A stretch of DNA of 63,476 nucleotides, filler included, from Hausera hauseri (taxonomy: Eukaryota), in the NCBI GenBank assembly GCA_046269625.1. It is 11 parts of 11 records of this genome, joined end to end, with 100 filler letters (N's around TTAATTAATTAA, not from the genome) between each part and the next. Parts side by side here need not be neighbours in the genome. Positions count along the whole stretch, not along the records: positions 50,070 to 55,141 come from JBJURY010344713.1; 10 more parts are not named here. The stretch is one strand, 5' to 3'. This document shows, in pieces, positions 15,620-63,476 of the stretch. The stretch's first letter is position 1; every line of letters starts with the position of its first letter. Position numbers and translations under genes: made by a program. The notes beneath the pieces are model-generated. The model was not told the DNA's origin, did not search any database, and saw only the letters and a program-made list of their open reading frames with translations.

Positions 15620-15730
15620 NNNNNNNNNNNNNNNNNNNNNNNNNNNNNNNNNNNNNNNNNNNNTTAATTAATTAANNNNNNNNNNNNNNNNNNNNNNNNN
15701 NNNNNNNNNNNNNNNNNNNTTATAATCAAA

Positions 15731-19650: not shown

Positions 19651-19829
19651 AGCGGGGACCTCGGCTACCCCGCAGTTTGCGGCCCGTCACGGCGAGACTG
19701 AAGCCCCGGCGGCCCACTATATTCCATTGGGTCAGACGGCACCGCTCGTTGCCGTCCCACGACACGCCATCGGCCACACGACCTCTTCTTACTTTTTATT
19801 GTTTTTCTTAAATAACACATTTGCACAAA

Positions 19830-21198: not shown

Positions 21199-21569
21199 NN
21201 NNNNNNNNNNNNNNNNNNNNNNNNNNNNNNNNNNNNNNNNNNTTAATTAATTAANNNNNNNNNNNNNNNNNNNNNNNNNNNNNNNNNNNNNNNNNNNNGA
21301 TCGTTAGCATGTATTGATAAATCCGGACGCAACGATCTAATGTTATGAATATCGTTGAAAACTGATGAGAACAAATCTGATTTAAGTGGCTCAAATCGTG
21401 GTTGAAAAGTAAATTGATCATCGATCATTTGAAAATACATCCAACAGCAATGGAAAAAAAAATCGAACTCCGCATAATGTATTTTAATATTAAAACAAAA
21501 AGCTTTTATTTTACAAATTCCACATGTAGATCACCAATTGGGTGAATGTGGGCACCACAACCGCCATTG

Positions 21570-40568: not shown

Positions 40569-41158
40569 CTAATCTATACTTTCGTCATTGTCAGGAGTAT
40601 TATTCAGCAGAATCGTTTTATCGTCGTTTTCCACCGTAGTAATATTTGCACGAATATGAGATTGATATTTATAGTCCATTAGCCAGAGTATATTACTTTG
40701 ATTCAGTAAAACACTTATGTGGTGTTTAATTTGATTAATAGTCGTTTCATAGTTGATTGACCGAATCTCCAATGCGACAATTTTTCCACTGCTAAAAACA
40801 CATTGACACAAAGTGGGTGGAATAGTGTTAGTCGCAGTGCAGGAAACAGTTCGGGCTCATAAATACATTCGGTCGCCATTGCTAATTTGTGCGGATTAAT
40901 TGATGGTGGTGATGAGCAATCTAACTGAGTCGTTACCGTTACTGATTGAATTTGGTCACTGACAATTCCGAATGGTAGATATCTGTCATTTGCGATTGGT
41001 TTGCGATAACCCATAATACGGCACTTTCCCGATGGAAATATAATGCATGTAATATCCGGTGGACATTTCTGGATATACTGCCTCGGCTTCCATTGATTAA
41101 ACGGCAGTGCATTAATACACTCAGTAACATGTTCGCGGTAGTTGATATTGGCTATCAT
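40569..41158 (-). pseudogene. TATA-binding protein (TBP)-like two-repeat core, one frameshift near 40790
   Basis: Repeat 1: IANI..TCIIFPSGKCRIMG. Repeat 2: IQSVTVT..IYEPELFPALRL..CVNVF/SSGKIVAL. Compare TBP YEPELFPGL..LLIFVSGKVVLTG. Confidence 0.85.
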
Positions 41159-41214
41159 GATTTATTGAAACAGTGTTCATGTTGCACCTATTTATATGTG
41201 TGATTATAAACAAA

Positions 41215-41855
41215 ATGTACAAGAAATGCATCACCAACGAAAGGAATCTTAATAATAGTGCCATTTTCCAGATAATAGGCCCCAGTTGAAGTGGCAAAAC
41301 GCACTTTGTTTGCAAATTGCTGCAGAACTACTGTGACATATTTCAACCTCCGCTGTTCAATCACATTTACTGGGATCAGGGCAGTGGTCATGATGGAGAG
41401 TCCGGTTTGACACATCAGGAATTTTGTAAGCTAAAATCGATAACGGTAATTGATGGGTTTGATGAGAAATGGTCTATGAGATTACGCAACGGTGAGGTTA
41501 TTGTCATTGATGATTTATTTCAAGAGTCAATGAAACAAGCCTACTTCAACAACCTGTTTCCGAAAATTGCACGACACCGTGGGGTGACGGTTATATTCAT
41601 TACTCAAAACATGTTCCATCAGTTTGGACAGCATCAAACAATAGATCTTAACGTACACTATTTGTATTGTTCAAAAATCCTCGTGATCAGACTATCATTG
41701 ATTATGCTGCACGACAAGCACTTCTTCACAACCGAGCCTACTTGATAGATGCATATCATGATGCTACGACCGAGCCACACGGACACTTGTTCATTGACAT
41801 CACGCAACAGTGTCCCGATGACATGCGTGTACGAATAGACATTTTCAGACAGTAA
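41215..41855 (+). pseudogene. Polinton A32-like packaging ATPase
   Basis: IFQIIGPS*SGKT (Walker A with GGA>TGA), VIVIDDL (Walker B), RHRGVTVIFITQN, FKNPRD, PHGHLFID. Confidence 0.92.
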
Positions 41856-41894
41856 GGTGTATGTATCTATAAACAAATTTGAAAATCGACGAAA

Positions 41895-42079
41895 TGATTA
41901 TGATAAAAATGAAGAATTTCCTAAAAACAATTGTTAAGCGTAAACCTACCAAGCGGGTTTTCGGCAAAAAACGTGTCTCAAAACGAACCGCTACAGTCAA
42001 GCGACTAATCAATTCTGTGCTTCGATAAACAGCAGCAACAACTAGAAGCAAATTAGCGTCACAGTGGCAACGGTTATAA
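41895..42079 (+). pseudogene. Small Lys/Arg-rich protein (putative core/DNA-condensing protein)
   Basis: MKNFLKTIVKRKPTKRVFGKKRVSKRTATVKRL; paralogue at 62185..62397. Confidence 0.45.
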
Positions 42080-42086
42080 ACAACTA

Positions 42087-42419
42087 CGTCTCAGCATCAA
42101 TACGTCCAAAAAATTCAATTCAAACGTTGTCAGCCGTACTTTATTGCTTTGCTCAAGGTACCTACGAGACATAAGAAAAACATGCTACGATCATTCCCGC
42201 AGTTTTTAGTGGACGATTTGATGGAAATTTTATACAATATCGTTGTGGGTCACGTTGACATTGGTAGTGGGACGCGGAATTTACTAAAGTATGGAAAACT
42301 CTCGTAGTAAACAACTTAAACGAGAGGTCATGTACCAGTAATACAGAGGATTTCTTGGTTCAATTCTACCGTTTATCATGTCATTACTGGCTGGTCTCAT
42401 CAGTACTGCAACAGCATAG
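42087..42419 (+). pseudogene. pX-like small protein
   Basis: FIALLKVP..LMEILYNIVVGHV..GFLGSILP. Confidence 0.6.
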
Positions 42420-42559
42420 GATAAATAATGACGGTAAGTATATGGTGATTTGCGATACGGGTACATGGTTTTCATCCTTCTTTCCCAGTTTACTGAATCT
42501 TTCATCTACGTTTCGTTCAAAATGTTGTAATTCGGACAAAACCGACACCATCGACGACA

Positions 42560-43570
42560 ACTATGGGCGACGTGTAGTTCGACCCTCGTCATCCTGTCGG
42601 GTGTACTAATGTCAACAAACGGACAAAGACAGTCAAACAAACTCGGCAACAGACCCAACGTTGGCTCGGGAAACAGTTAGCATACAGCCTAAACAAACCA
42701 ATAAGAAGGCGGTTTTCAACTCGTGCACACCGTTCTGTGGGTGTAAATAATGCATGGCAAATGGATCTAATGGAAATGATTCCGTACGCCAGCATCAACG
42801 ATGGGTATTGGTACGTGCTGACACGTATTAATGTGTTTAGTTGATTTGCACATGCAATAGCTGTGAAATCTAAATCCGGTAAAGTGATTGCTGACGCTGT
42901 TTACACACTGATACAACAACAACATCCGAAGCATTTACAAACAAATTTGGGTAAGACCGCTACAACGCCCACGTTGTAGCGGTCTTAAAACGGTTGGGTG
43001 TAAACCACAACTTGGTATTTTCCAAATACAAGGCTACACTCGTTGAACGATTTAATCGAACATTGCGCGGCCGCCTAAACAAATTTTTTACGAAGCAGGA
43101 CAACAAAAGCTGGGTAGATGTACTGCCGGATATTATATGCATACAATCATTGACACATCGTGGCATCAATGGACTACGACCGGTTGATGTAATCGATGAT
43201 TTAAATATGTGGTTTTATCAAAGCCGAACACAAAGACAGGAAATTAAACGCCAAAAATATAAAATCAGTTTTTGTGTACGTATTTCGAAAATAAGCACGA
43301 CGCCGTTCATTAAGAATTTCAATCCGAACTGGAGCGACGAGGTTTTCCGCATTTCGGCAATCAACAAAAAACAAACACCTGTCATATACGTTTTAGAGAT
43401 TGAAATCGGTGAGTAAATACGCGGTAAATTCTACGAATAGGAACTGCGGGTACTGCCGGAAGAACCTGATGTGTGTGGTATTCAGGAAATTCTACGTTCA
43501 CGCGGAAAAGGTTCGAATGAACAATATCTCGTCAAGTGGCACGGAGTTGAATATTTGCATCGCAGATTGA
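42560..43570 (+). pseudogene. Polinton integrase-chromodomain
   Basis: WQMDLMEM, LVERFNRTLRGRL, NWSDEVFRI, QYLVKWHG. Confidence 0.9.
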
Positions 43571-43573
43571 GTA

Positions 43574-44625
43574 ATGACAATTTATTTAGTACTTCATAGT
43601 AACAGATTATCAGAACATGACAACAGCAACAACACTACCGCTGAACGGTTTACCATGGCGTTGGACCAGCCGCTCGAACTACGCCAGGGAACTTGGGAAG
43701 TGGCTTTAGCGGAATTCACATTTATGTTTTCACCAATAACAATACGTGAGAACAGTGGAATATACTATACTCTACTAATACAATCTCCTGAATCTAATCG
43801 TTTGCAATTAAACCGAGACTCTAGTGGAATGTTCCACGTTCGCAATTACAAGCTGCAATATTTCCCGGTTTATACTTTTTCATTTAAACAATCGATTGAT
43901 GCTAAAACACAAACATCCAATTAAATTGAAATTTAAATCACTAGCCGACGCTCAGGCATGGGGTTTTCAATCTGTCAATGTGCGCTCGAAAGGTCTACAT
44001 CTCGGTGGACATAGTATAATTAGTGAAAAATTAAACACCATGAAAACCACCTATATTACAGTGAACTGGCAAAAGACTGAATCATTATTTTACTCTCATA
44101 CAACAGGAACTGGTTTTCTTACGGAAACGGAAAAAACTGTGCGCAACCATCAAGTTTGTAGCTAAATTGGCTCTCAAGACATTTGAATTAAACTTTGATG
44201 GTCGTATTTCGTTTACACTACATGGTAATGTTACATATTTTGCCTTTAATGAACTATTGGCACGGAATCTGAGTTTTAAGAAATGAGAATTCAGTCAAAA
44301 CGGCGGCGGACGGCCCATTGTTGCTAAACACAAACCACGTCTGTAAGAAGCATTTCATGGAATCAATATTTTATCGGATCTAACCGAACTCGTATGGGTT
44401 GGCAAAGACTGTAAACAACTATTAGCTTCTGTCTGACTGGATTCGGACACATAGAAAACAATGGACGAAACTGCTCACGTAAATATAATCCAGCCAATGT
44501 ATTTATCGTTGTCTCACAATGTTGGGAAGAGTATTTCCGTGCATATAGTAGAGAAATTTTGGAAACCTATTAAATTTTTGTTTGCAGCCAAGACACACTG
44601 ATGTTAAATTTTCGTCGTCAATAAT
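43574..44625 (+). pseudogene. Penton A (full span, degenerate)
   Basis: MTIYLVLHSN..FTMALDQPLELRQGTWEVALAEF ... ILSDLTELVWVG..PMYLSL..LNFRR. Confidence 0.83.
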
Positions 44626-44659
44626 AAGAAAACTGCGTCATCACTATTATCATCATCGA

Positions 44660-45151
44660 GATCATCAGTATTTACATGGTGTTGCCCAGCAACAGTTGTC
44701 CGACGACTAGTCCGAACAATTCAGCCAGTGAATACGTTGAAGATGGAACAATCCTTTGGATTTTTCTAGAAAATAGGAGGTTGCACTGACGGAATTTAAC
44801 TTTCCCTACGCACCTATGACATTAAAAGGTAGTATGAAGATAATGTACAACAAGACTGTTACTGAAACCAAAATACATTCTTGTCCTCTGACACTTATTG
44901 ACAATAAAATAACAGTTAGAGAATCGTCCATTTGTACTACCAGTACAAATTATGGTTTATACAGTAAGATCGGTGTTTTTATTTTAGGGGGAAACTTACA
45001 TTTTATGGCAGATTTTGAAATTACTGTGACCTTTGAGTGCTCTGAGATGGCACAGAAATTTGGATTCAAAAATGTAAAGTACAGAGGTAAAGATATTAAA
45101 AGTGAATATGCAGTTGTGCCAAGATTAAGTCCCGTACATTACCAGACAACG
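44660..45151 (+). pseudogene. Penton B N-terminal part
   Basis: SIYMVLPSNSCP..VALTEFNFPY; closely similar to the reverse complement of 11510..11996. Confidence 0.83.
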
Positions 45152-46439: not shown

Positions 46440-48200
46440 ATCCTGACATATGATGTATGTAAAGGCTTTCAAATAAAATAGGAAGCTGCCATTGTTGCAC
46501 TGGATCTTGAGGATGAACAACAGAGTTTGATATGACACAGTATTCCACCTACTAATTGACATGGAAATAGACCAGTGGATTGTTCGGTGGATTGTCTCCA
46601 TCCTCTTGGCTAGGAAAGTTGCTTTGTGATATGGTACCTGGACATCGGAGGTTAGAGATATAGCACCGGGTCTTCCTCGGGGTTCACCAATATCACCAGT
46701 GTTGTTCAACTTATGCACGCTAGGATCTCACAGTTGGAGGGAGCTCGACCTGGCAGAACACGGACTTATGCAGATGACATCATGGCGTATATACACGGTA
46801 AAGGCAGGGGTGAAATGATGGAACAACTAAAGGAAAACATGGATCGCATATCCCAACAGCAATTCGGTGATCAACCCAGCCAAGACCAAAATCATGTGGT
46901 GTTCTTTGAACAATATAATCGTGAGGGACAGCCTACCAGAGTTCAAACTCAAAAGAGTAGTCACTGAGAGGGAGCAAGATTTGAAGTATCTGGCAGTTAC
47001 CTTCAACAGAACCCTTTCCTACAACAAACATGTAGGCAATGTCATACAGAGAGCCAGGAAATGGGTCGGTGTTGTACAACTGATGGCAAATGCTGAAATA
47101 CCATAATGGATTATGTTTCTCTTAAAGCAAGTGCTGGTGCTAGCAGTTATTGACTACGGTCTGGGTCTGCTTACCTTGTCTCAGATGCAGATAGCAAGAC
47201 TTGAAAAAAATTCAGAATGCGTCCATGCGAGCAGTCCTGGGATTACAAGGGATCCAGCGATCGTGATCATGACTTGCCTAGCATGAATGTAAGACACACA
47301 CTTGCACAGGTGAAGGATTACTTGAAGGTTGCCAGCAGAACTGACCATCATCTACATCAGACGTTAGACGGGGTCAAAGGCAAGCGTGTCAAAGGAGGAA
47401 AGTCGTGGATGGTAAGCGCAGAGGAGTCTCTGAGCAAGATCTGTGATAATGACGAAATAGTGAGGGGCAACGAATAGATACAAGTGTGCTTTGATTAAAA
47501 TTAAAAATGAATGGACCAAAGTAATTATCACACTCGTGACTGGGCAAGCGGTGCAACAGATTGTGAGGTTCAGGAACGTATTCAATGTCACTCAAAACCA
47601 CATGACTCCATTATATTCACTGATGGCTCTGTCACTAGAAGTGTCAAAAGTTGGTGGGGTTTTGTTGTATATTAAAGCAGTTACACATGAATCAGGTGAC
47701 TATCAAAAACTACATCTAGCATGAGCATGGAGATAGAGGCCGTAACAGCAGCACTGAAATGGCTGATCGATCAAAGCATGGCACATACAGCGGTGGTGAC
47801 AGATTCACGGAGCATGCTGCGAAAAATTCCAAACGCACACTTCGAAGAGAATGGATTATTCTTCTGGACCACAGCATAGTTGAAAGTATTAAGGGGAACC
47901 AGAAGGTAGACATGCTGGTCGGAAAAGCAACTGCCCATGGTACGCTGGCAATGGACAAATCAGACACGATGCGGGCCTTAGGTGACAAATTGCGTGGGGA
48001 TAAAGACAAAGAATCGGAAGAGAACAGTTATATAAGAAAAATGGTGGATTCAGGAGTTATGAAGAGAAAAGGAAGAAAGAGTTTACTTTCTGAAAAGGCA
48101 AGAAGAACTTACTGAAACAGTGTTACTGGAACAGAAGGTACGAACACTATTCTGTGTCTGCTGGTACAGGGAGCAGAACAGATATGGGAAAGCCCTGAAT
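46440..48200 (+). mobile_element. Non-LTR retrotransposon (RT plus RNase H; I/Ingi-group-like), degenerate
   Basis: GLPRGSPISPVLFN, TYADDI, INPAKTK, KYLAVTF; RNaseH IFTDGSV, MEIEAV, VVTDSRSML, KGNQKVD. Confidence 0.85.
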
Positions 48201-48307
48201 GCAGGTTCCAATAGCAAATAGCACATAACTGTCATGATCGGTATACTTGTTGCCGACGGTCGTGCCAAGTTTGGATACGTTGATGGATACACTGATGAAA
48301 ATTGGAA

Positions 48308-49011
48308 TGTTATAGAAACTGGCTGCCCAAACCGAAAAGCACGCTTCCTAAACGGAACATAAATAGTTAAAAATCACGTCATGAAAAGAAGAGAAATGGC
48401 GCGGCGCATAAATGGGAATCGGAAGTATACATAGAATCTAATGACGTGGACAACAGGAGCAACAGAAATAAGGAAAGTTCCCTACACAATAGTAAACTCA
48501 ATTTGATTGGTCCACGCAGAAAGACAGTTCTTGTGGAGGCGCACTAGAAGTAACGGAAATGACGTTGGCTAGCAACGAGCTCTATAAAAGGAGGCAAGCT
48601 GCTGGCAACCGGACAGTTTTGTGCCAAGCTTCTGAAGAGAGCAGAAGTATAACTGCTTGTACAAATTCATGAAGGTCAGTTCATCTTGAGGAGCGGCAGT
48701 TAGCCATTGGATAGTAGCTTCTGAGTCAAGAAGAACGATATAAACTAGTCCATTTCAGTAACGCCAGCCTTGTAGAACCTCTGCGTAATTGTATGGTCAG
48801 CACTATTCTCGAAGACATCGTGTCTAAGACTGAGAACTAAGCTAGTGGACAGTCGTCCACTCGCGGACGTTTTTCCTAGACACCGACAGATCAGCAGTTT
48901 AAAGTACGAAACAAGAAGTGTATTTGAAAGCAAGCATCGTGCAATTGGCATAAACGACGTATAGAAAGGTGCATGTGAGTAAACGAGCTCGTTGCATCGT
49001 TCATATTACCA
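48308..49011 (+). repeat. Possible solo LTR
   Basis: TGTTATAG...ATTACCA termini, CTATAAAAGG TATA at ~48582, AGTAAA near the end. No matching TSD found. Confidence 0.4.
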
Positions 49012-49077
49012 TTAGTAGCCAACGGTGCTACTGTTGCTGTTGCATGCAACATGATTACCACGTCCATTATTCGTCAT

Positions 49078-49969
49078 TTTTGGCAGATGAGGCTCGTTAA
49101 CCTTGGTTGGTAACTCATCTAAGAGAAGAATAACTCGGATGTAAAACCTCTGCTGCCTTGCGGGAAAACCTGTATTCAATAAAGGCTTTGGGAGTAAACC
49201 CTGAGGAAAATCCGGAGGGAGGGACCCTAAGGCAGCTGATAGAGAGGGCTGTTCCAACCTATCTTCTGGCATCCCATGCAGCTCTTCCGATTCCCAGTTG
49301 TATTGCTTTGTCTTTCCCTGGGTCAAATCAGTGGAGATGAGAGGGGGGGGGGGGGTAGTGCAACGTGGGCATGGCACTTCCTCCATATTGTTAGCCCAGG
49401 CAAGCAGAAAATGTAAAATGGAGAGGCAACTCCATCCTTGCTGTACAGAAAGGATAACATCAGGTGTTGCAACAGTAAGGAAACAACACGGGAAGCGGCA
49501 GTTACGGGTTATAAGTCCTCCCAAATTGGCGAAGGGGAGGGCGCCACGGGTCGCTTCTGACGGTGGGAGCGGCTTTTTAGCTGCACTGGTCAGCTACCGC
49601 CCGCCTCAAGCTGGGCAGCCCCCAGTCAGTAAGGTGCTAACCCGTCACATCTACCTGCCTTGTGGGGTGCGCAAGTGCTAGACCAAAAGTCGAAAAGAGA
49701 TGAAAAAGAAAAAGGTACCCAGCAATAAACAAAAGAAACAAACCACAATTAGATTGGGCTCCTGGAACGTAAGAACCATGTGCCCAGGACTAGGAGACCA
49801 AGACATCGCAGACGACATCAGAAAAACAGCAATTATTGATAAAGAGCTCACAAAGTTGCAGGTTGACATCGCTGCACTGCAAGAAACAAGACTAGCAGAT
49901 TGTGGCTCTGTTCAAGAAAAGAACTACACATTTTATTGGCAAGGCCTGAGTTCAGATCAACCTCGACTA
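49078..49969 (+). mobile_element. RTE-clade (BovB-like) LINE 5' UTR and AP-endonuclease start
   Basis: IRLGSWNVRTMCPG..RKTAIIDKEL..VDIAALQETRL..YTFYWQG; RTE-type 5' UTR segment AAACCTCTGCTGCCTTGCGG. Confidence 0.88.
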
Positions 49970-50069
49970 NNNNNNNNNNNNNNNNNNNNNNNNNNNNNNN
50001 NNNNNNNNNNNNNTTAATTAATTAANNNNNNNNNNNNNNNNNNNNNNNNNNNNNNNNNNNNNNNNNNNN

Positions 50070-52840
50070 AGGTCCTACGATATCCATTGACATGGCCTGC
50101 ATGGGCCTATCGGGAACGTTAACTGGTTTTAATTCGGCCATATAGTTTTTTGTCTTTTTTGTTTAGTTGCACATACTTCGCAATCATTTACCCAATTTCT
50201 TACATCGATGTAGATGCTAGACCAAAAGTATTTAGTCATTATTCTTTCTAAAGTTTTCTTCCAGGACATGTGTCCGGCTAAGTATGAATTATGTTCTGAC
50301 ATCAATACTTCTGTTCGTAAGCTCATGGGAATAACTATCAACTTCCTTCCTTTTTTTCGTAGTATAAAATACCTCCTTTGTTCCGGTCGTTTAGAACGCA
50401 GTACTTATGCCCATATCTGTGTAAATGTTTCTTTAATTGTCGTCCTTTTGGTATAATATCCTTTCTAGCAAATTCTATAATTTGCTGGATAACTTTATCC
50501 TTTCTCTGTTCTGCTGAAACTTTGCTTGCCCTATCTATTGTTAACGCGCGTTGGCGGTCTATTAGTTCTTCAAGTTGACTTTTTTTCATTACAGTAATTG
50601 CGCTTGTTTTCGTCTTTAATCTTGATAGTGCTCAGCATCTACATGTTTATTCCCTGGCTTATACTGAAATTCGATAATGTATCTGGAGATTTCTTCGATC
50701 CACCTATTAAGTCTGCACGTTGGATTATTGGCTCGACACTTTAGAGTCGTAACGGCCTTGTGGTCAGTTACATTTATGATTTTCTGCCCGTAAACATAAA
50801 CGTTAAAATGCCAAAGTGCATCTTTTACTGCTAGAGTTTCTAATTCGGTAACATAATAATTTTTCTCCGCCTTTTTCAAGGAACGTCCTCCATAAGCAAT
50901 CAGATGTTCTAATTCTTCATCTTCTCTTTTCTGCGCTAATTCGTATCCTATGCCTCCTTTACTGGCGTCGGTTTTAATTAGGAAAGGTAAGTTAAAATCT
51001 GGATATCTCAAAACAGGTTCGCTTGTTAATATTTTCTTCATTTCATCGAAAGTTTTTGCTCAACGTCTGTCCATTTCCATTTGATTCCTTTTTTAAGTAA
51101 GCGATATAAAGGTGCATTGATTTTCGAGTTATCTGGTACATAAGTTGAGTAATACCCGCAAAGTCCTAGCCAGTGCAGTAATACTTTCTGATTTTGTGGC
51201 TCCATGCAGTCCGATATTTTGTTCAACAGCGATTTATCTGGTTTTTATCCGCCTTCTCCCACTATATGGCCAAGATAGGATACAGCATTTTGAGCCCATT
51301 TGCATTTCTTTGGATTTAATTTCAATCCCGCTTGTTCCAGACGCATCATCGTATGCTCAATATCCTTTAAGTGTTCTTCTTCCGTTCTTGATGCTATCAT
51401 CACATAATCTAAATATGCAAAGGCATGATCCAATTCCATTAACATTTTGTTCATCATTCTTGTAAATATGGCGGGCCCGGGAGTAATACCGAACGGCATG
51501 ATATTGAATTTGTAAACACCATCGTGAGTCTTAAATGCTGCCTTATAACGGTCTTCGTCCTCTATTTCTACTTGCCAATATCCGGATTGTAGGTCCAGAG
51601 TGGTAAATTATTTTGCTCCTGAGAGTCTGTCTAAGGCTTCTTTCACTGATGGTAATGGAAAAGAATCTTTCATTATCAGATTATTTAGGGCTCTGTAATC
51701 GATACAAAATCGGTGTTTTGTAGTGCCTTTTTTAACCATAAGAATAGGCGAGTACCAGGATCTGTAACTAGGCCTGATTATGTCGGCCTTAAGCATCTGT
51801 TCAACCTTCTTTTTTATCTCGCGTCTTAGCGAATGTGGCGGAGGGTACCATTTCGGCATCTTCTAATCCTCCAAATCTATTTCTTCATTTGAACCAGGCT
51901 CTTTCTTGAGCGGTATAGTCAATTTTAAAGCCTTCGTTCTGCCTATATCTTCTTCATCCTTAGCGATAATCGATTTATATCGACATAATAGTTCACAGAA
52001 CCGACAATAATATTCCGGTGAAAACTTGGTTTCGACATGCGGTGGAAATTCAGCATATTTGTACGGCTTTTCTTCAATAGTTATTGATGATACTTTGTAC
52101 GTATCTCCTAGAGTAGTGTAAGCGTGGAGTTTGACAGGAGTTTGCGAGTTGTTGGCTATTCTGATTGGTACTCGACCGGAGCGTACTGTTGTCAATACAT
52201 TGCTGAGCAATATATTCGGGTCTAACGTATCTCTTGGTTCAAAATATACCGGTTGATCGTCGTCTTGTTGTATTTGAGCATAAATTATTATCTCTGTTCT
52301 CGATGGGATGTTTTCGTCAACTGGTATCCATACTTCTCCAATTTTCCTATCCTTTGCGTTTCTTACGCCTTTGTTCGGTCTGATTTCGATTAGTTTTCCC
52401 GTTGGTAAGTCAATCGCTATATTCGATAGTCTTTTCAATAAATCACACCCTAAAACGACGTCGTCAGTTAACTGTTCCATAATCGCGAACTCATGTCGAA
52501 ATGTTTGCCCAACTAATTGGACTTCTGGGTTCCATTTAAACATCGGTTTTGACATTTGGCCAAAAGCTCCTCTACTTCCTGGGTCTTTCGTAGACGGTGG
52601 ATATAACTGTCTTCTTAGTGTTTGCAGTATTGAATCATTTTTGACATAAGACATCTCAGAACCCGTATAAATTAATGCGTAAACTTCCCAATTTTCGATG
52701 ATGATTTTGGCAAAGGGTCTTTTTTCTATTACTGTTCCAAAACAATTTGATGCTACTTTCGAACGTTTAGTCGATGATATTTTGTGTCCATTGATACGAA
52801 TTTCTGGGGAGGATACTATATTTTCCGATAGTTGTCTCAA
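50070..52840 (-). mobile_element. pol: Ty3/gypsy pol (PR-RT-RNaseH-INT zinc finger), degenerate
   Basis: ALIYTGSEMSYV..VVLGCDLL; RFCIDYRALN, DLQSGYWQV, MPFG, AYLDY; KTDAS..ELETLAV..VTDH; HNSYLAGH..YFW..CEVC. Confidence 0.93.
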
Positions 52841-52950
52841 TTCTTCATTTGGGTATAATTCATTGTTTTCTACGTGGATTTCTTACGCTTCATGAGTACT
52901 GATTAACGGTTCACGATTGTTAGTATGTAGTTCGGTATGTTGAATGGTTT

Positions 52951-54395
52951 TCAGTCTTGGATTATCCCAAACTGTTGATCTAGTTTCAATATTTTTAGGT
53001 TCTCTTGGCGAGTACAACATCCTAGGGTTATCCGCTGATTGCCGATAACACAATTACGTAAGATTTCATACCGCTTCGCTCCTTCGTAAGGATCTTCTAC
53101 ATTAATTGTCCTTTTATAGATTTCCGTCTGATATGAGCTTATGGATCGTTTGTCACAATCTTCATAGAACGGGGCGGTAGGAGGTAGCATAGGCAACGGC
53201 GCTTTGACCACCGAATGCATTTTGTGGAGGTTTATCCTTGAAAATGCTTCTCCTCCCTTAGGCTCATCATCATCTGAATTATTTCTTCTTATAATAGACC
53301 TTTTAAGTTTCCGTTTCCGTAGGAATATAGGTTTTCCTCTTTGTTTTCGATTTAAGTATCCGACATGACGTTCCACGTCCGATTTCCATCTACTTTCTTC
53401 GTACGCCTTTAGAATTTTTCCAAGGGGCGTTATGATTGCGGTCAATATCTTACATGAAAATCCGGTTAAGTAAATATATCATATCCATTTATTACCGCTT
53501 AAATTACGGCCTTTACCATTTGTACCAGAAAATATATCGCTAAAAATCCTGATATGGCTTGTCCGAATATCAAAAATCTTCCCCACATTTTATATAGTAT
53601 TTCAGTTGTTACTCGTTGATAATGGTTTACACTGAGTCAAGAGTCCCATTTAACTTGATATCTGGTATCGTCTACTACTGAAGCCATCGCTCGATTTAAT
53701 TCGTGCGTTCGTTGTCGTGGAAAATCGAGGAATTGTCTAAAGACCTCAATTTCCTTTGGTCTGTAAATCCCTTTTGACGAGGTGTCTTGAAATTTGTCGT
53801 CTGTAATTCCTTTCGCTAGATTCGTTCCTGTTAATTTGTTTGAAGCGGCAGTGATACCTCCATTTTGTAAACTAACCCAGTCCGTTTCACTACGCCTGAA
53901 CATAGGTTCTCCTAAGCTTGCCTTACAATCCTTGAGAATAGTTGGTCGCGTCGAATTTTCCAACAACACTCTCGGCAATGGTGTAGCTAATCTTGGGATG
54001 TTCTGGTAAATAATGGGAAGTTTCTGAATACAGCGTTTTTCTTCCACATTGATGGGTACGTCTTTCTTTTCGCATTCGTAAGTTAGCAGTACTTCGCCTG
54101 TGACTCGACCGAAAATTCCTTCTCTCATGGGAATTATTGGGGAAGCCAATTCCGGATTTGCATAAATCAAAGCCATTTTAGTTCTCATAATTTCCGTATC
54201 TAGTTTGCAGTCATTCGTTATCATTTTATGATATAATTCCATTATTCCGACTTGTCCTTTATATTAAAAGTAATCGTCTCTATTTTTCAGGTAATCTTCG
54301 ATCCGGATATCCTGCGTTTCTAACTTATACGTTCTTGCATTTATTTATCTGCGACGAAAAATGCTTCGTAGTTGGTAGCAAACATTACTACATCA
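52951..54395 (-). pseudogene. env: Envelope-like glycoprotein (chuvirus G / gB-type class III fusogen), C-terminal half with TM and tail
   Basis: LYHKMITNDCKLD..GIFGRVTGEVLLTYEC..CIQKLPI..C..KGIY..FRQFLDFP; manual translation of ~53480-53600 gives the TM region MWGRFLIFGQAISGFLAIYFLVQMVKAVI*AVINGY; the tail contains PTAP. Confidence 0.8.
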
Positions 54396-55311
54396 TAATG
54401 AGAAATCATTTCTTTCCTGATAAATTTTAGTCAAAAGGAGTCTCAAATGAACTCTTTGTGTGATCTTCATTCTATTTCTTTGCTTGGTAAACATTTAGGA
54501 AACAGGAACATGTTTCAACTAAACATATTGTTGGATATACTAACAACAGTAGCTCAAAATTTTTTGTCCAGTATTTTATCCATTCAGAAAGAACTCTTCA
54601 AATCCTTTATGAAAACTTCATCATCCTTGGCTTCAATCAATGTATCAATAATATCTTCATCGTAGTCTTACAGATTTACATTTTTCAACTAAATTTCAGA
54701 ATTAACTAGAATCAGTAAAATGATGCAGTAGTTAGCAAATCAATCTTTTTATACGTTCCATTTTTATCAAAGTCTCACCAGTACCCTAAATCGTTCACAA
54801 TCGGACACAATTTGTTCAGTTCTTTTAAAGCGCCGGGAGTGGGAATTTTGCCTACATTGAGAAACCCTGAATTAAAGGACTTAACATATTAATTTTAATA
54901 ATTGACAGAGGAAGAAGATTAAACAATGAGGATATTGTTAACTGTGAAGCACTGAGGCATTCCGGTTTGAGTAATAGTTATCAAAAGTATGACAAAATAG
55001 ATTCCAAATCGAACAAAACATTAAAAAAAATACAAATACTCAAGTAGGCTGTCACTAATCACCGATCTGCGTCAAAAATTGAATCCGAATTATAGCTGCC
55101 AGAATCAATAAAGGGGGTGCAATAAATATTAAGAATAATGANNNNNNNNNNNNNNNNNNNNNNNNNNNNNNNNNNNNNNNNNNNNTTAATTAATTAANNN
55201 NNNNNNNNNNNNNNNNNNNNNNNNNNNNNNNNNNNNNNNNNAATTAAATGATAATGAAACAAAAGGCAAAAACAACGAACAATATACATTATTTATACAA
55301 AACAGACAGAT

Positions 55312-58300
55312 CACACTGAATTGTCACAGTGAATGGGTCACTTTGATCTGTCTGTATCTTCAACCACTTACGTCTATCATTACATGATAAGGCGACTTTT
55401 GTATTGGTCACCATATACCGCTGGTTTTCAATCGACCTGATGATCGTTTGTGACACAACAGCCTTTGATTGTCCTTCTTCATAGATACGGCGATAATCAC
55501 ACTGGTTTATTTCTACCTGGGCTAACTGAACTCCTTTGGCGCGCCTTTTCGGCCTACCGTCAGTTAAAAGGCTATATCATTTTGGCCGTAGAAATACCCA
55601 TTCCCGATATTGAACTCGACCTTCACTTTCATCCTTGAAGCAGCCGATTTTGTTTGATGGCGTTGCTGTACAATGGATGATTCTGTGGGTAATTGGACGT
55701 GTCCAGTAATCCGCCTGCCATCACTTGCCGCAGTAGTTGTTTGCGATTGACGTTTTCCAGTTCCTAGAAAAAACTATCTGTGTCATCGACAATTATACTT
55801 ATTTTGCATCCGCCGCCGAACATTTGCCGGTAACGTGCCAAATCACGATTCTGCAGCTCATGCGCAACTTGCTCAGATCCAATACCACTTGTCCTATATA
55901 ACTTGGCCGGTCCAGTACGACTTCTTCCCTGTTTAAAAGCACGGCATCCAATGTGCATTGACCGCCGGAACTGTTATTTGCTGGTATACGTAACCAGCCG
56001 CTTTTTCGAGTTACATAGGCGCACATTGATGCGCTTTTTCAGAGAATTGTTTTTCACCTTGTAGTAGTTCTTTTTGTACTTTGTACAAGCTGCGACTCGT
56101 TACTCCGAATTTGGGAGCCTGAGTAAATCGGATTGCACGATTCAGTTGTGTGACGCGTACACCGAGCTGCATGTATGACTGTAGCAAACGCCAATGGTTT
56201 ACGTAATTCAGCTTCGGTTCATGCGTCATGAGCAGTATCTTCATTTTGAGCCTGGCGAACATTGGTTAAATGGTGCGACCGGTAAATCGTCCAAAACGTT
56301 ATGCAGCGCATCTGGTATCTCGAGATCGACCTCCATCAGGTATCCGACTGAACCTGCCATGTCTGCTCGTGGTAGGTTGACCATTATGTCATTCAGATCT
56401 TGTCTGTCGATTACCCATTCAAATGAACCGTACGGCAAGGATTGCGAAAGCGCCCAGCCGTACAGGTTATTAATATTAATATGCAGCAGTGATGTGGTAT
56501 CATTACTGGTTACATGATGCTTGTTGACAAATTTCATGCCTCCACGAATACCAACATCAAACAGCCGGTGAATTTCCGGGCCTTTCAGCAGCTCAATTAC
56601 TCGATCCAGTGACATTAGAGCTGACGCCCAACTCATTCCCGGTATGGAATAAAAGTTGAGTGGCTTCAATCTATCTTCCGTTAGCGCTTTGGTTCGAAAT
56701 GCTCGAAACATGTGGGCTAATAAGTACACGTCCAGTTTAAGATACTGGAGCATGTATTCCAACATGTTTCTACAGCCCAGGCCTGTCCAATATTCTTGTG
56801 ATCTCCGATATTTATCTGCGATACTTGTCCATCGCGCTGTAATTCCTCTGCTGTCCAGAGTCGCTCATATGATGTTGCAAAGTCATTGAAATATGCCTTT
56901 GCTGCGTGCAATATGTGCAGGGAATTTCGTCAGTGCTATCGGCACATCTGACAGGGCATTTACCAGCTTTGCCAATGATTCATTGAGAAATTGCAATGAA
57001 TCAGGGAAGCGTACCTGGAATCGGTTTACGCGTGCTGACAACGATATGTATTTCTCCATTGCCGTTGGGATTATGGACAGTTCCCAGTGCGGAAAGCCGT
57101 TAAAGGCTCATTTGAGAATATGGTGACAGTCAACCTCTGAAATTATGAAAGATCACCGGCAGGAATGGTCACACGCGCCTTGCTAAATTGCATGAATTGC
57201 ATGCTGCTCCCAAGTATCGACCGGTGAAACGTTTGTGATCCGGTACGAGCCGTTTCTGTACATCAAACGGTATTATTTTGTGGTACAGATAGCATTGATC
57301 GGTGACAGCGAAAAGCAACGGTTGATATTCGTCTGCCCAAATCAATGGCTTACTGCAATTGTTGCGATACCGCAGCGCAATTTCCGTTTCCACTACGGTT
57401 TTTAACTGCTGCAGGAAATCACGTACACAGTTCCAACCATGGTAAACGTAATACTGCTGTTTTCCAGCGGCTTTTATTGGTACTAGCAACATAGCGACGA
57501 CAATTGGAACGTGCTTTTGATCGTATACATTTTGGCGTGGTAGAATTGCTTTGATATGGGTATAAACTACATATGCCGGACTGTTTGTTTTAGACCAATC
57601 ACTGAATCTGAGTTCTTTTTTGACGGGCATGACGTACATTGTTGTCCCTGATGCGTTTTGCTTGCATAGCGTGACATGTTCTCCCACGTTGTTTCCGATC
57701 TGAATCCATGCAGACATACAGGACACCATTTGCATCGTATTCGCTTTTTGATGAACTGGTCATGCTCCATTTTCAACAGTTTATCCAGATTTGTCACTGC
57801 CACGTAATGAAATTTTTCGGCCTGCTCCAACAGCAACAAATTTACCGAGCGTCCATTTTGGTTCCGACTGTGATAAATTATGTCCACATGGGTGTTCTTA
57901 TAACTTTCTTCGTCTTCCGGTATTTCAACTGGTGTGTTGTACCGGAAAACGTTAATTGGCAGCGTCGGATTACACCTTTCAAAAGCCGGAATGGTTTTCA
58001 GTTTCATCGACATCTAGCATTCACCAAATTGCAATTCGGAAAAATACTGCCGCTACTGATTTGGACGATTTGCATTGTATGTGTTCACTTTGCTGTACTT
58101 CAATATAGCCAGAATACTGTACAGAAAACAGCATTCATCGTCAGTATTTTGTACATTCACTACCGCCAGAGACTGCTTTAGAGATGCAGGTGTCGGTATG
58201 AATGACCGACAAGACAAATATACCACGTCACTCGACTTTGTTATGATAGAGCCTAGTGTAACAATTCATATAATTCGCTATCTACTACCCTTTCCGGTAT

Positions 58301-58400
58301 AGTTGGCGATTTTCTCATCCAACTTTTCGCCTACATTGGTAATAAAATCTTCGGAATACGGTACGGCTCGATGTGACGGATATCATTGTTTCCTGTCGCC
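55312..58400 (-). pseudogene. Polinton protein-primed PolB (copy 2, divergent from copy 1)
   Basis: INVFRY..LLLL..HYVAVTNLDKLL..CPVCLHGF; PDHKRFTGRYLGAACNSCNL; YLKLDVYLLA; GIRGG; NNLYGWALSQSLP; LDRPSYIG; DTDSFF. Confidence 0.92.
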
Positions 58401-58410
58401 TTCAACGTTT

Positions 58411-59052
58411 TCAAATTCTGCATGTGCATAATATTGCACTTTGCAGTTGTTGAGTTTGAATTTCTTCACCTCTAATTCCAACCGGCTGCGCACACAGGAC
58501 GAAACATGCCTCAGCTGTAGTGTGAGTTATCCCCGACATGTTTACTTTCACGTCCACGTACGATTTGTTTAGATCGTACTTGACAGTAATAGAAAGTTCC
58601 TGCTGTTGCATCTGCGGCTGCTGCTGTTCGGTACTGTTTTGGATGTATTCGTCAAGACTTGTGGATGTTTGACGTTTCCTGCTTGTTGAGGGGATACTAG
58701 TTTTTTTGTCGCCATCACTTTCCTTTTTGGACCGCTGATACTGGTTCAAGTGGTCCTTGTGGGTGTTGTAGAAATGTTCATAGTTGATTTCATCAACTAT
58801 AGAACAACCGGGACAAACGTAGGCCCCTTTACCGTGCACCGTTGAGGTGCCATAGTACTGCTCCATTGTACTATGACAACCACTAACGTGCACTTTACTA
58901 TTGCAGTAGTGTGGGTATGTGGAGCAATGTTCCACCATCATCTTCTTAGACTGAGTAAACGGCCCGAGATGATGCTTGTGCACTTCATAAAAATCAGGAT
59001 ACATACAGCGGGTTGGAATATCACACGTTAGACACATACGTGTCCGTGCCAA
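58411..59052 (-). CDS. Cys/His-rich protein with two CxxC..FYxxHKxHL repeats, upstream of pPolB
   Basis: CLTCDIPTRCMYPDFYEVHKHHL and CPGCSIVDEINYEHFYNTHKDHL. Confidence 0.5.
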   Translation of the reverse strand: MARTRMCLTCDIPTRCMYPDFYEVHKHHLGPFTQSKKMMVEHCSTYPHYCNSKVHVSGCHSTMEQYYGTSTVHGKGAYVCPGCSIVDEINYEHFYNTHKDHLNQYQRSKKESDGDKKTSIPSTSRKRQTSTSLDEYIQNSTEQQQPQMQQQELSITVKYDLNKSYVDVKVNMSGITHTTAEACFVLCAQPVGIRGEEIQTQQLQSAILCTCRI

Positions 59053-59482
59053 TTGTGTAATACTTCGTCATTTGTTTATGGCACTGATCCTCAACATGTA
59101 TGCGCGAGACGCAATACATGACATATTGCTTATATTTCTAAATTTAAACAAATTAACATTTAAAATAGATTAAAATTATAAATAAAATAAATGATAATAC
59201 ATATACTTGTAAAATTAAACATTAAACATAACCCCGATGGTCTGTGAAATAGTCTTACTCTATTATAAACGTTTGTTCTCCATACCACTACTAATAATAA
59301 TGATCAAATGGAACAGTACATTGAAAATGAGATGCAGAAATTGACCGATGACATAATGACAGGACGTGTTTGATGTGCAGTTNNNNNNNNNNNNNNNNNN
59401 NNNNNNNNNNNNNNNNNNNNNNNNNNTTAATTAATTAANNNNNNNNNNNNNNNNNNNNNNNNNNNNNNNNNNNNNNNNNNNN

Positions 59483-59557
<75 letters not shown>

Positions 59558-59577
59558 GATGATGATTATTGTGATGA
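59483..59577. repeat. (GAT)n microsatellite
   Basis: Directly visible; abuts a spacer. Confidence 0.98.
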
Positions 59578-59579
59578 CG

Positions 59580-60640
59580 CAGTGTGTTTTGTATCCATGA
59601 CGTCGAAAATGTAATGTCATATATTTCTTTGATCCAAACAGAAATTTAGTGGGTTCCGATAATTCATCAAACATATACACGCAAATATGATGTACAATAT
59701 TTTGCGTCAATGATAAATATGCGGGTCTGAGCATATCAACGCGAACAGTTTCACCCGATATTTTGTACGTGTCAGAATCCAGTTTGATAGAAACCGGTAG
59801 TTGTTTACGTTCTCAACAAATGAGTGCGGATTTGGTTAAGTCTGTTAAAATATTGATTCGGTGAAATGCTCGATAGTGTTGCGGTTTGTATTTGGTAACA
59901 ATACATCATCCAACAATGTTTTGATAGAATTCGCGTTTTGAAAACCAAGATTCCAAGCCAATAATTCATTAAAGGCAAAATATTTAACATTGTCATGTAG
60001 TTTAATCGAAATGCGACCATATGCGTTTATTTCACATGCCTTTACGGCTAATGTAACTGTTTTCTTGACGTATTCACACAATTCCAGTTCTGTTTCCATT
60101 ACTAAATCATGTGGCATAATATATGAGCGTAAGACTGATTCTGACGTAGTCCACTTTACTATAATATCAGATTCCGCATCGGATGAAAGGTCCGATTTTT
60201 CACCAATTATAACATGTCCACTTAGCTGTAGACGTTTTGAGTGTACATTGACTGATTGAAAACGTTATGCCTGGGCATCAGCTGTAGAATTAAACTGCAT
60301 TTCCATGGGATTTCGATGCGTTAGTTTCACACGGTAGTTTGAAAAATAAGCATAAACCGAAAAATTTTCTCGCGAATAATTGCGAAAAATATATCGGTTT
60401 TTGTGTGAGATTGTCCGCAAACGACTTGAAATAAAGTACGTTTCTTGTCGGGTAAAGTAAATACCACTGTTCTGACGTAATGTGATTGGTAAAAATATAA
60501 ATATGAATTCCTTCAAAGCCACTTCCCAGGCTCCGTGGCGTAAATCGACCGGTTGGTCCAAGTGCAAGTAGACTGTTTAGCGGTGTTGTCATTGTCGTCA
60601 AGTTGTGATAATGATCTGTTACTATCAAGTACAAAGTAAA
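59580..60640 (-). pseudogene. Penton A
   Basis: IYFVLDSN..HLDQPVDLRHGAWEVALKEF ... PAYLSL..MTLHFRRH. Confidence 0.83.
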
Positions 60641-60656
60641 TGCTGCTGCTACTCCT

Positions 60657-61712
60657 TGAATCTGTGATGCAAAAATCCAACTCTGTGCAGTGTATCCGTG
60701 CCACTTGACGAGATATTGTTCATTCAAATTTTTGCCACGTGAACGTAAAATTTCCTGACTACGATATACATCGGGTTTCTTGCGCAGTACCTGCAGTGCC
60801 TGTGCGTAGAATTTACCGCGTATTTCTTCACCGTTTTCATCCTCTAAAACATACATTACAAATGTTTGTTTGTGTTGATTGCCGATATGCGGGAAACCTC
60901 GTCGCTCCAGTTTTGATTGAAATTATCAATGAATGACGTCGTACTCATTTGCGAAATATGTACGTAAGCACCGATTTTATATTTTGGGTGTTTAACTGCC
61001 TGTCGTTGTGTTCGATTTTGATAAAGCCACATGTCAAAATCATCGATTACGTCAACCGACCGTAATCCATTTAGGCCACGATGTGTCGAATGATTGTATG
61101 CATGAATAATATCCGTCAGTACATCTACCCAGCGTTTGTTGCTTTGCTTCGTAAGAATTTGTTTAGGGGACCGCGCAATGTTCGATTAAATCGTTCAACG
61201 AGTGCAGCCTTGTATTGGGAAAACACGGAGTAATGGTTTACGCCAAACCGTTTCAAGACCTCTGCAACGTGGGCATTGTAGAATTCTTTACCAAAATCCG
61301 TTTGTAAATGTTTCGGCTTTTATTGTTGTATCCGTGTCTAAACAGCGTCGGCAATCTCTTTACCGGATTTTATATTTCACAGCAATTGCACGTGCAAAAC
61401 GACTAAACATATTAACGCATATCATCATGTACCGATACCCATCGTTGTTGCTGGCGTACGGAATCATTTCCATCAAATCCATTTGCCATACGTTATTTAC
61501 ACCAGCAGCACGGTATGCACGAGTTGGAAACCGCTTTCTTATTGGTTTGTTTAGGCTATATGCTGTCTATTTCCAGAGCCAACATTGGGTCTGTTGCCGA
61601 GTCTTTTTGACAGTCTTTGCCAGTTTGTCAACGCCAGTATACCCGACGGCATGACGCGGGTCGAACCACACGTCGCTCGTCGTCGGTGTTGTAGTCGGTT
61701 TTGCTGCTTGCA
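60657..61712 (-). pseudogene. Polinton integrase-chromodomain
   Basis: WFDPRHAVGY, WQMDLMEM, VERFNRTL, GKFYAQALQ, EILRSRG..QYLVKWHGY..SWI. Confidence 0.9.
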
Positions 61713-61812
61713 TTACAACAATTAGAAAGAAACGTAAATAAATGATTCGGTAAAGTTGGATAGAAAGATGAAAGCCATGCATCCATATAGCCGGATCATC
61801 ATATACTTGCCG

Positions 61813-62148
61813 TCATTGCTTATACTCTGCTGCAGAACCAATGCGTCCACTCAATAATGACGTGACAATCGACAGAATTACACCAAGGAATCCGTCGTCT
61901 TGCTGGTACATGACCTCTCGTTTCAGTCGTTTACTAAGTGCGTTGGCAAGGCCAATGAGTCGTTTTCGATACTTTAGCAAATTCCGCTTTCTACTACCAG
62001 TGTCAACGTGACTCACAACGATATTGTATAAAATTTCCATCAAATTGTCTACTACAAATTGCGGGAATGACCGCAGCATGTTTCGCCTACATCTCGTAGG
62101 TGCATTGTGCAAAGCAATAAAGTACGACTGACTTCGTTTGAATCTCAC
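61813..62148 (-). CDS. pX-like small protein
   Basis: LMEILYNIVVSHV..YQQDDGFLGVILSIVTSLLSG. Confidence 0.62.
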   Translation of the reverse strand: MRFKRSQSYFIALHNAPTRCRRNMLRSFPQFVVDNLMEILYNIVVSHVDTGSRKRNLLKYRKRLIGLANALSKRLKREVMYQQDDGFLGVILSIVTSLLSGRIGSAAEYKQ

Positions 62149-62184
62149 TTTTTGGACGTACTGATGCTGATGAGACGTAGTTGT

Positions 62185-62397
62185 TTATATCAGTTGTCAC
62201 TGTGAAGGTAATTTGCGTCAAGTTGCTGCTGCTGTTGTTCGAAGCATAGAATTGATTAATCGCTTGACTTTAGCGGTTCGTTTTGATACACGTTTCTTGC
62301 CGGGTACCTGCTTGGTAGGTTTACGTTTAACAATTGATTTTCGGAAATTCTTCATTTTATTACTATCGTGTCGTCGATGTTTGAATTTGTTCATAGA
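62185..62397 (-). pseudogene. Small Lys/Arg-rich protein
   Basis: MNKFKHRRH..RKSIVKRKPTKQVPGKKRVSKRTAKVKRL. Confidence 0.45.
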
Positions 62398-63028
62398 CAC
62401 ATACACCACCCTTTTGATTGAAAATGTCTGTTTGTACACTCATGTCATCGGGACACTCTTGTGTAAAGTCGATAAACAAGTATCCGTGTGGCTCGGTTGT
62501 AGCATCATGATATGTATCTATCAAGTAGGCTCGGTTGTGAGGAAATGCTTGTCGTGCAACATAATAAATGATAGTCTGATCAGGGGGATTTTTGAATAAC
62601 ACCAAATAGTGTACGTTTAGATTTCTTGTTCGATGCTGGCCGCCATGATGGAATATGCTTTGCGTAATCAAAATAACCGTCACACCACCGTGCCGTGCAA
62701 TCTTCGTGAACAGGTTGTTGAAGTCCGATTGTTTCATTGCCTCATGAAATAAATCGCCAATGACAATGAGGTCACTGTTTCGTAATGTCTCTGACCAATT
62801 CTCATCAAACCCATCAATTACCGTTATCAATTTCAGTTTACAAACTTTACGATGTGTCAAACCGGATTTACCATCATCATCAACACCTTGATGCGCGTAC
62901 ATGTGATTGTACCGCGGTGAATGAAACATGTCACGGTAGTTCTGAAATAGTTTGCATACAACGTGTGTTTTGCCACTTCCACTGGGGACTACAATCTGAA
63001 AAATTGCATAATTCTGCAACTTCATCAA
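62363..63028 (-). CDS. Polinton A32-like packaging ATPase
   Basis: PSGSGKT (Walker A), LIVIGDL (Walker B, altered), ARHGGVTVILITQ, RTRNLNVHYLVLFKNP, PHGYLFID. Confidence 0.92.
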   Translation of the reverse strand: MMKLQNYAIFQIVVPSGSGKTHVVCKLFQNYRDMFHSPRYNHMYAHQGVDDDGKSGLTHRKVCKLKLITVIDGFDENWSETLRNSDLIVIGDLFHEAMKQSDFNNLFTKIARHGGVTVILITQSIFHHGGQHRTRNLNVHYLVLFKNPPDQTIIYYVARQAFPHNRAYLIDTYHDATTEPHGYLFIDFTQECPDDMSVQTDIFNQKGGVCVYEQIQTSTTR

Positions 63029-63182
63029 AATAATAATAATAAGACAACCTTTCTGTGGTGCCCACGGCGGCCAGTGCCCTTTGGCTTATTTGGTTAAGCG
63101 CGGCCGTGCGTCCGTTGCCGCCTTGCCGAGCCCATAGTCGGGCCCGATCTTCCGCTCGAAAATTTCTCCATCCAAAAGTTTT

Positions 63183-63413
63183 ATGTATTTCTCGTATTGC
63201 ATTTTAAAATGGGTGCCGTTCGCTTTGGGGATTCAATGCATCATGTTTTATATTCCACGTTTAATATGGCAAATGATATGCTATAATCATACGGGAACCT
63301 ATATTCAGCATTTGATTTTAAGTGCGAACCAAGCTGTCTATCCAAGTGATGATGCGAAAAGTAAAATCGTAATGTATGTGGCCGAGATAATAGCAGAAAC
63401 GTTTCCAGCATAG
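63183..63413 (+). pseudogene. Innexin exon fragment
   Basis: WVPFALGIQCIMFYIPRLIWQMICYN matches the innexin TM2 signature YYQWVP..L..Q...FY.P..IW. Confidence 0.85.
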
Positions 63414-63476
63414 AGAATACAGAAAAAAAATTTTCGCTAATTTCCGGCGAAAACTACATTCTAAATGCAATTTTCT

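Follow-up and report, generated by a model that had tools for sequence, protein, structure and literature searches.

A decayed Ty3/gypsy retroelement of Hausera hauseri with a glycoprotein B-like envelope upstream of the protease

We analysed a 63,476-nucleotide stretch of DNA from Hausera hauseri (GenBank assembly GCA_046269625.1), hereafter the window, which consists of contigs joined by N spacers. Confined to the minus strand of one contig (JBJURY010344713.1, positions 50070-55141) lies what we take, with a probability of roughly 0.9, to be a decayed copy of a Ty3/gypsy long terminal repeat (LTR) retroelement of the gag-env-pol type. It would belong to the Burro-like, flatworm-type lineage of errantiviruses, whose envelope is of the herpes simplex virus glycoprotein B (HSV/gB) type. 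An earlier note on this DNA had treated the layout, with env placed before pol, as unexpected. A literature check showed that it had already been published for Burro (PMC6431247) and for GAG-ENV-POL errantiviruses (PMC13524379).

Env and pol on one strand

The element is about 4.4 kb long. Along the minus strand we observed an env piece, its membrane anchor, a tail frame, the protease, a spacer, reverse transcriptase (RT), RNase H and the start of integrase, within which the contig terminates. Pfam matches, hydropathy and open frames confirmed the order that the earlier note had given (env end, transmembrane helix, PTAP-bearing tail, protease), and matches to PF00078, PF17917, PF17919 and PF17921 bore out its description of the enzymes as gypsy-type. 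Two features that define Ty3/gypsy membership were found, namely the order protease-RT-RNase H-integrase and gypsy-type RT, RNase H and H2C2 integrase. Among the 120 matches listed, the named retroelements were Ty3/gypsy and none was BEL/Pao; the RT tree described below was built without a BEL/Pao outgroup.

The envelope piece

Domain searches of broken frames were run with stops read as X. The C-terminal half of a gB/chuvirus-G-like ectodomain, together with its membrane anchor, occupies positions 53469-54350 and is interrupted by stops at 54266, 53639 and 53501; the central helix, beta domain and C-terminal arm are present. It matches PF24664 (Monjiviricetes_fusion) at 53640-54263 (E=3.3e-16) and at 53502-53636 (E=1.7e-7), and reading across 53469-54329 gave E=3e-33 over positions 300-577 of the 653 in the profile. 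The predicted transmembrane helix (53520-53576) is a hydropathy peak at residues 252-270 of P0001 and aligns with the anchor of relatives.

The most upstream surviving env piece lies in a different frame from the rest, at 54329-54436 (profile i-E 0.002; tblastn of P0016 E=1e-5). It matches positions 276-311 of a 643-position profile built from the env of 11 relatives, and the roughly 275 profile positions 5′ of 54436, including the fusion-loop half (domain I), are absent from the contig. Env homology is present up to 54395, where the earlier note had ended it, and with an additional frame change it continues to about 54436. The place expected for gag and the front half of env is taken by 705 bases of unrelated AT-rich DNA outside the element (54437-55141). 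These had no Pfam match in any of the six frames, and neither the stored proteins nor other parts of the window matched them clearly.

An AF2 model of the unbroken 208-residue piece (53640-54263) reached a pLDDT of 82.8. Its best VIA match among 48,161 chains was HSV-1 gB (2gum_A; Z 7.9, rmsd 3.2, 140 aligned residues), a score in the range (Z below 8) that may reflect a common arrangement. The top eight rows comprised six herpes gB chains and two thogotovirus glycoproteins, and unrelated rows scored up to Z 4.0. Foldseek found no match for this piece at E<=0.001, and the rows it listed were all gB except the last. For the full env of a relative (model pLDDT 81.7), Foldseek gave E=6e-14 to HSV-1 gB, and comparison with RNA-virus glycoproteins of ticks and insects (arthropods) gave E=2e-40. 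A sequence search of the PDB with an env profile from 65 relatives returned gB chains only (34 of 34 rows, best E=0.0025).

On the predicted structure and the PF24664 match, the window envelope is of the class III (gB/chuvirus-G) fusogen type, as the earlier note had proposed. Both the window piece and the relative's full env have a fold in common with herpesvirus gB and the chuvirus-monjiviricete glycoproteins. The window env differs from gB in its low identity (11-15%), in being embedded in a retroelement polyprotein and in missing its fusion-loop half.

Env before protease in relatives

A phmmer search with the window env piece yielded 123 relatives. Word-based comparison of the X-read env with 1243 candidates among longer proteins gave no homolog. 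In 11 of the 123, env runs into protease within a single chain, and in two pol precedes env; Pfam analysis of 19 of them revealed one further BEL-type protein with env last. The ten best env matches include eight env-protease chains, one fragment and one protein that ends with env. Integrase is reached in four of the env-protease chains, and a fifth extends as far as RNase H. A CCHC knuckle occurs 5′ of env in five of the 11 single-chain relatives, with Retrotrans_gag also found in one. In four of the 11 chains, as well as in P0033, hydropathy peaks where env begins, which would fit an internal signal peptide.

In an RT tree of 127 sequences, the window grouped with five out of five env-upstream proteins and three env-less pol proteins (FastTree support 0.93), and an env-downstream protein fell outside this group. 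The same group had an SH-aLRT support of 89 in a 43-sequence tree of that clade, its nearest blastp matches and some plant and other outliers. The env tree covered the window and 83 of the 123 relatives, those with too low coverage being dropped; here the window fell in a clade of 13 with nine env-protease chains among its members (support 0.93).

The locus could in principle be a tandem or recombinant junction, in which the env of a gag-pol-env element, or of an endogenous chuvirus, came to lie beside the pol of another gypsy element. Such an origin would fit an env that lacks its 5′ end and the spread of env, tail and pol over three frames. There are also env-after-pol proteins among the env matches (P0019, P0080, P0111), and chuvirus-like glycoproteins near gypsy fragments are reported from insects (PMC10084718). 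However, env and RT independently select the same env-upstream relatives, which argues against a chance junction. Moreover, the anchor-to-protease spacing of about 290 codons lies within that of relatives (116-376), a Tyr-Pro motif stands just before the protease as it does in them, and no gag precedes the protease. A junction is therefore largely refuted, and we consider it very unlikely. As judged by sequence comparison, env upstream of protease is a trait of the family and the locus is not a tandem junction. The earlier note had likewise taken the arrangement as genuine; eight of the ten best env matches and the RT phylogeny agree with this.

Decay of the window copy

Seven in-frame stops interrupt the element (54266, 53639, 53501, 52885, 51865, 51610 and 51247). 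There are also at least six frame changes, near 54340, near 53470, between 53053 and 52951, near 51056, between 50631 and 50350, and near 50140. The active-site motifs of both protease and RT (YxDD) are non-canonical. Because of these lesions and the loss of half of env, the copy is a 5′-truncated, decayed, dead fragment. This goes well beyond the frameshift and stops to which the earlier note had confined the damage, and the copy is not the potentially infectious element suggested there. It also lacks the full-length continuous gag, pol and env open reading frames (ORFs) that PMC13524379 requires for inclusion.

Between the anchor and the protease

The 175 codons at 52951-53478, reached through the frame change near 53470, represent the env cytoplasmic tail or env-protease linker. 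The first 20 residues carry on the second hydrophobic (post-anchor) stretch of env. A post-transmembrane profile from 77 relatives scored 8.7 bits in the tail frame vs at most -1.1 in the other two frames; weaker tests gave E 1.7 in a window-wide tile search, which is not significant, and 1.0 bit with a 13-sequence profile. No Pfam match and no usable Atlas match were found for the tail. Its stop lies 69 bp from the pol open frame and about 275 bp from the protease motif, in place of the gap of about 110 bp reported earlier.

The earlier note had also stated that no gag, LTR or polypurine tract intervenes. No gag signal was indeed found between env and protease by Pfam, Atlas or blastp. For the LTR, a repeat search could not exclude one at this site because the contig contains no LTR pair; the contig has no match to the rest of the window. 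The tail does contain purine runs of 11-13 nt, but the A-rich strand has seven such runs along its length.

The tail could alternatively be a short gag in an env-gag-pol order. Oribatid-mite elements of this kind, picked up by an ENV-POL search because their gag is short, are described in PMC13524379. The tail contains a basic stretch and PTAP, both usually found in the Gag of retroviruses. Against this, Pfam, Atlas and blastp gave no gag signal and the tail has no CCHC; its start continues the post-anchor stretch, and relatives have gag before env. In a table of PMC13524379, the mite elements belong to RT clade M and the flatworm elements to clade E. We rejected the tail as gag since it has no gag signal, which leaves a small residual chance of a very divergent one, and we regard an env-gag-pol order as extremely improbable.

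In 11 relatives env and protease are read as one chain, which supports, for these relatives, the single polyprotein envisaged earlier, but in the window copy the frame is broken. The element might belong to the same lineage and yet reach pol by a programmed -1 frameshift or from a separate ORF. The pol frame, open between about 53053 and 52888, overlaps in the -1 direction with the tail frame, which ends at 52951. However, no canonical slippery heptamer was found in 52860-53060, a further stop stands at 52885 in the pol frame, and conserved domains contain at least five other frame changes that plainly reflect decay. With the 11 relatives reading straight through, this alternative seems to us improbable.

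Protease and pol domains

The aspartyl protease, with its non-canonical active-site motif, lies at 52427-52726. It was recognised by tblastn with relatives and by PF00077 (RVP), whose E=0.002 is below the curated cut-off. By eye, a stretch near 52810 resembles a second, degenerate protease start; P0002, P0005, P0007, P0011 and P0014 contain two to three aspartyl-protease-like motifs per chain. The protease-RT spacer (51740-52426, stop at 51865) is common to relatives and aligns continuously with P0003, P0007 and P0127. It possibly corresponds to the dUTPase-like insert reported for Burro; no dUTPase match was found for it among PDB sequences.

RT and connection extend over 51053-51733 (PF00078, RVT_1, E=7e-34), with stops at 51610 and 51247 and the frame change near 51056. 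They are followed by a gypsy-type RNase H at 50631-51059 (PF17919, RT_RNaseH_2, E=6e-29; PF17917, E=7e-28). The integrase zinc-binding domain and the first core residues (50070-50353; PF17921, Integrase_H2C2, E=3e-18, and tblastn) contain the frame change near 50140 and are cut by the contig end.

In six relatives (P0003, P0007, P0030, P0127, P0129 and P0130) the chain runs 600-1200 residues beyond the integrase core and has one or two hydrophobic stretches. In several of them this part resembles a second membrane protein, with a signal-like segment, ectodomain, anchor and tail. These are six of the 48 stored proteins with an integrase motif, and all six fall in the window's RT clade. The extensions of P0127, P0129 and P0130 are homologous, and Atlas gave no usable match for the post-integrase domain of a relative. 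The window contig stops 5′ of where such an extension would begin.

Motifs in the tail

PTAP is present in the tail at 53170-53181 (residues 100-103 of the tail frame). A hydrophobic-Tyr-Pro motif with the pattern LYPx3L lies in the pol frame at 52838-52858, 61 residues before the protease motif; in relatives its position is mostly 31-55 residues before it. We counted motifs in the 64 of 123 env relatives with enough tail (11 env-protease linkers and 53 free env tails), with shuffle expectations that ignore relatedness. P[TS]AP was found in one of 11 linkers, a count that 88 of 2000 shuffles reached, and in seven of 53 free tails, where 0.5 were expected and none of 2000 shuffles scored as high; PPxY was found in one of 11 linkers. 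For hydrophobic-Tyr-Pro the counts were eight of 11 linkers and 27 of 53 free tails, against expectations of 0.8 and 2.2, respectively. The earlier note was thus right that the tail carries PTAP, but it is hydrophobic-Tyr-Pro that is conserved instead. PTAP, and likewise PPxY, was rejected as the family's conserved late domain, each being found in a single linker.

As a control, gypsy pol proteins lacking an env match were used, of which 35 of 120 had a usable pre-protease region; one of these 35 regions had hydrophobic-Tyr-Pro. The motif also occurred in four of 53 ectodomain pieces, against 1.0 expected, and 11 of 500 shuffles reached this number. In the pre-env parts of the five gag-bearing relatives, two Tyr-Pro motifs were counted, and neither P[TS]AP nor PPxY occurred.

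LYPx(n)L is a late domain that binds ALIX, and YxxPhi is a tyrosine sorting signal that binds adaptors. Of the 126 tyrosines in the 64 tails, 42 have Pro as the next residue, against a Pro frequency of 11%, and at 35 of these 42 Tyr-Pro sites the preceding residue is L, M, V or I. This leans towards LYPx(n)L over YxxPhi. The pattern fits the former and also overlaps the latter; the motif may act as an ALIX-type late domain or in sorting.

That it is an ordinary YxxPhi signal for env trafficking, and not a late domain of the endosomal sorting complex required for transport (ESCRT), we rate at slightly less than an even chance. YxxPhi fits 31 of the 42 Tyr-Pro sites, as well as 28 of 84 other tyrosines, and viral glycoprotein tails commonly carry such signals. 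However, YxxPhi needs neither the excess of Pro after Tyr nor the hydrophobic residue before it, P[TS]AP is enriched in the free env tails too, and the window's own motif does not match YxxPhi.

A broader proposal, which we hold only tentatively and think rather doubtful as a whole, is that ESCRT late domains (hydrophobic-YPxL, often with P[TS]AP) sit on the env tail and not on Gag, and that the tail tethers Pol. Env would then both drive budding and deliver the enzymes, and the post-integrase membrane protein could be the attachment partner of the fusogen. If true, the tail motifs would make Env, not Gag, the ESCRT recruiter of the retroelement. Our literature searches, which did not cover subscription papers or Sacco et al. 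2022, found no report of late-domain motifs on gB-type retroelement env tails. The terms 'late domain', 'ESCRT' and 'polyprotein' are all absent from the main text of PMC13524379.

Known elements with this layout

The window element combines an HSV/gB-type env with its placement directly before the protease, without an intervening gag. Burro is described in a review by Arkhipova (PMC6431247), where the planarian Burro/GYPSM1 elements are giant gypsy elements with env in frame between gag and protease. Their env lies between BCL2 and protease, matches mononegavirus fusion proteins and is presented there as the first case of an env placed in frame between gag and pol. Burro also shares with the window element the gypsy pol and an insert between protease and RT. 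Burro further has extra domains (BCL2, MATH, BIR and ankyrin before env), giant size and LTRs. These features are not visible on the window contig because everything upstream of mid-env is missing there. A Bcl-2-like piece just before env was also seen in P0009 (PF00452 E=1e-3), with the motif in P0002 and P0033, and is reported for Burro too.

PMC13524379 describes GAG-ENV-POL errantiviruses of the HSV/gB type in Platyhelminthes, Nematoda and Bryozoa, which have in common with the window element a Ty3/gypsy pol, a gB-type env and env before pol. In motif and on visual comparison, our best env matches resemble the Schmidtea C1a env pieces of its supplement but not the Bryozoa pieces. The YQES motif of the Schmidtea pieces occurs in six of the 123 env matches (YQE[ST] in 11), nearly all among the best. 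The window overlaps these pieces by its first 28 or so env residues only. Four of six motifs were not found in the supplement because it contains env domains I-II only. The published elements are intact and often multi-copy (up to 215 copies in Schmidtea), whereas the element described here is a single decayed fragment.

A chuvirus glycoprotein is also known from mosquito BEL/Pao elements (PMC7642597, described in PMC13524379). Their env belongs to the same family, PF24664, but they have a BEL/Pao pol with env after integrase (cf. P0111), whereas the window element has a gypsy pol and env first. PMC13524379 further cites Sacco et al. 2022 for a nematode metavirus with env and pol flipped.

Several points weigh against placing the window copy in this lineage. 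Neither gag, 5′ LTR and primer-binding site nor the env signal peptide and front half of env were found on contig 50070-55141. Gag or CCHC precedes env in five of 11 relatives; as there is no gag on the contig, the gag-first order proposed in the earlier note is borrowed from relatives. Env, tail and pol occupy three different frames in this copy. Identity to the best relatives is about 34% for env and 47% for RT, which makes the window element a distinct family. The relatives are predicted proteins, some of which may be spliced gene models. In the smaller RT tree a 12-member clade with three more env-less proteins had a support of 96, and RT-clade support consists of FastTree and SH-aLRT values. 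Finally, the likeness to Burro and other published elements was judged by layout, motif and eye.

The nematode metavirus is said to have a continuous gag-env-pro-pol ORF and to be restricted to nematodes.

Proposed working of intact members

For intact members we infer the following topology, cleavage, particle formation and infectivity. A single long ORF would be translated as a polyprotein. Its gag part would remain in the cytosol, and an internal signal peptide would direct the ectodomain, with its gB-like fold, into the lumen of the endoplasmic reticulum. The env anchor would bring the chain back, leaving tail, protease, RT, RNase H and integrase on the cytosolic face, where the element's protease could cut the enzymes free. 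Pol would in this way reach the budding site tied to Env, with the tail possibly recruiting ESCRT or sorting factors. Fusion of the particles with new cells would be the task of the class III trimer. The window copy performs none of these steps.

Other content of the window

Gag-like frames at 1-977 and 26790-27819 (minus strand) weakly match gag parts of env-upstream relatives (P0034, E=6e-14; P0008, E=2e-11 and 7e-7). They lie on other contigs, have no env match and showed no link to the element described here. Other decayed gypsy pol fragments (886-4410, 6844-7456 and 19816-21254) are more distant from the env-upstream family.

Decayed pieces of a protein-primed DNA polymerase B and an endonuclease VII-like protein at 55242-59382 are Polinton-like (weak Pfam matches, E ~0.01). 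Several copies of Polinton-like modules, 75-90% identical and with integrase-like and A32-ATPase-like frames, were seen at 10314-15619, 41000-45150 and 59483-63476. From their ORFs, by eye, we take 23103-24001 (minus strand) to be Tc1/mariner-like transposase remnants and 46500-50017 (plus strand) to be a remnant of an RTE-type long interspersed nuclear element. Frames at 15722-16995 (plus strand) resemble a DEDD exonuclease by eye, with no Pfam match.

Two pieces of host genes were also observed: a DNAH3-like axonemal dynein AAA-D4 fragment at 22026-22493 (plus strand; PF12780 E=3e-47) and, weakly, the N-terminal domain of a cytosolic carboxypeptidase at 5234-5821 (minus strand). The named matches of the dynein fragment are from sponge, octopus, fish, bats, ostracod and flatworm; nematodes are not known to have DNAH3-like axonemal dyneins. 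Provided that all contigs of the window derive from a single organism, a nematode host is improbable. Rfam and ARAGORN searches found nothing in the window.

Significance

The env-before-pol layout is already known, having been reported in 2019 for Burro, in 2022 for nematodes (as cited) and in 2026 for three phyla. The broken copy described here adds at most one further family and perhaps one more host group; if the host is neither flatworm, nematode nor bryozoan, it would extend the layout to another phylum. Its potential importance lies in the budding mode of gag-env-pol elements, where the enrichment of tail motifs raises the question of whether Env recruits ESCRT.

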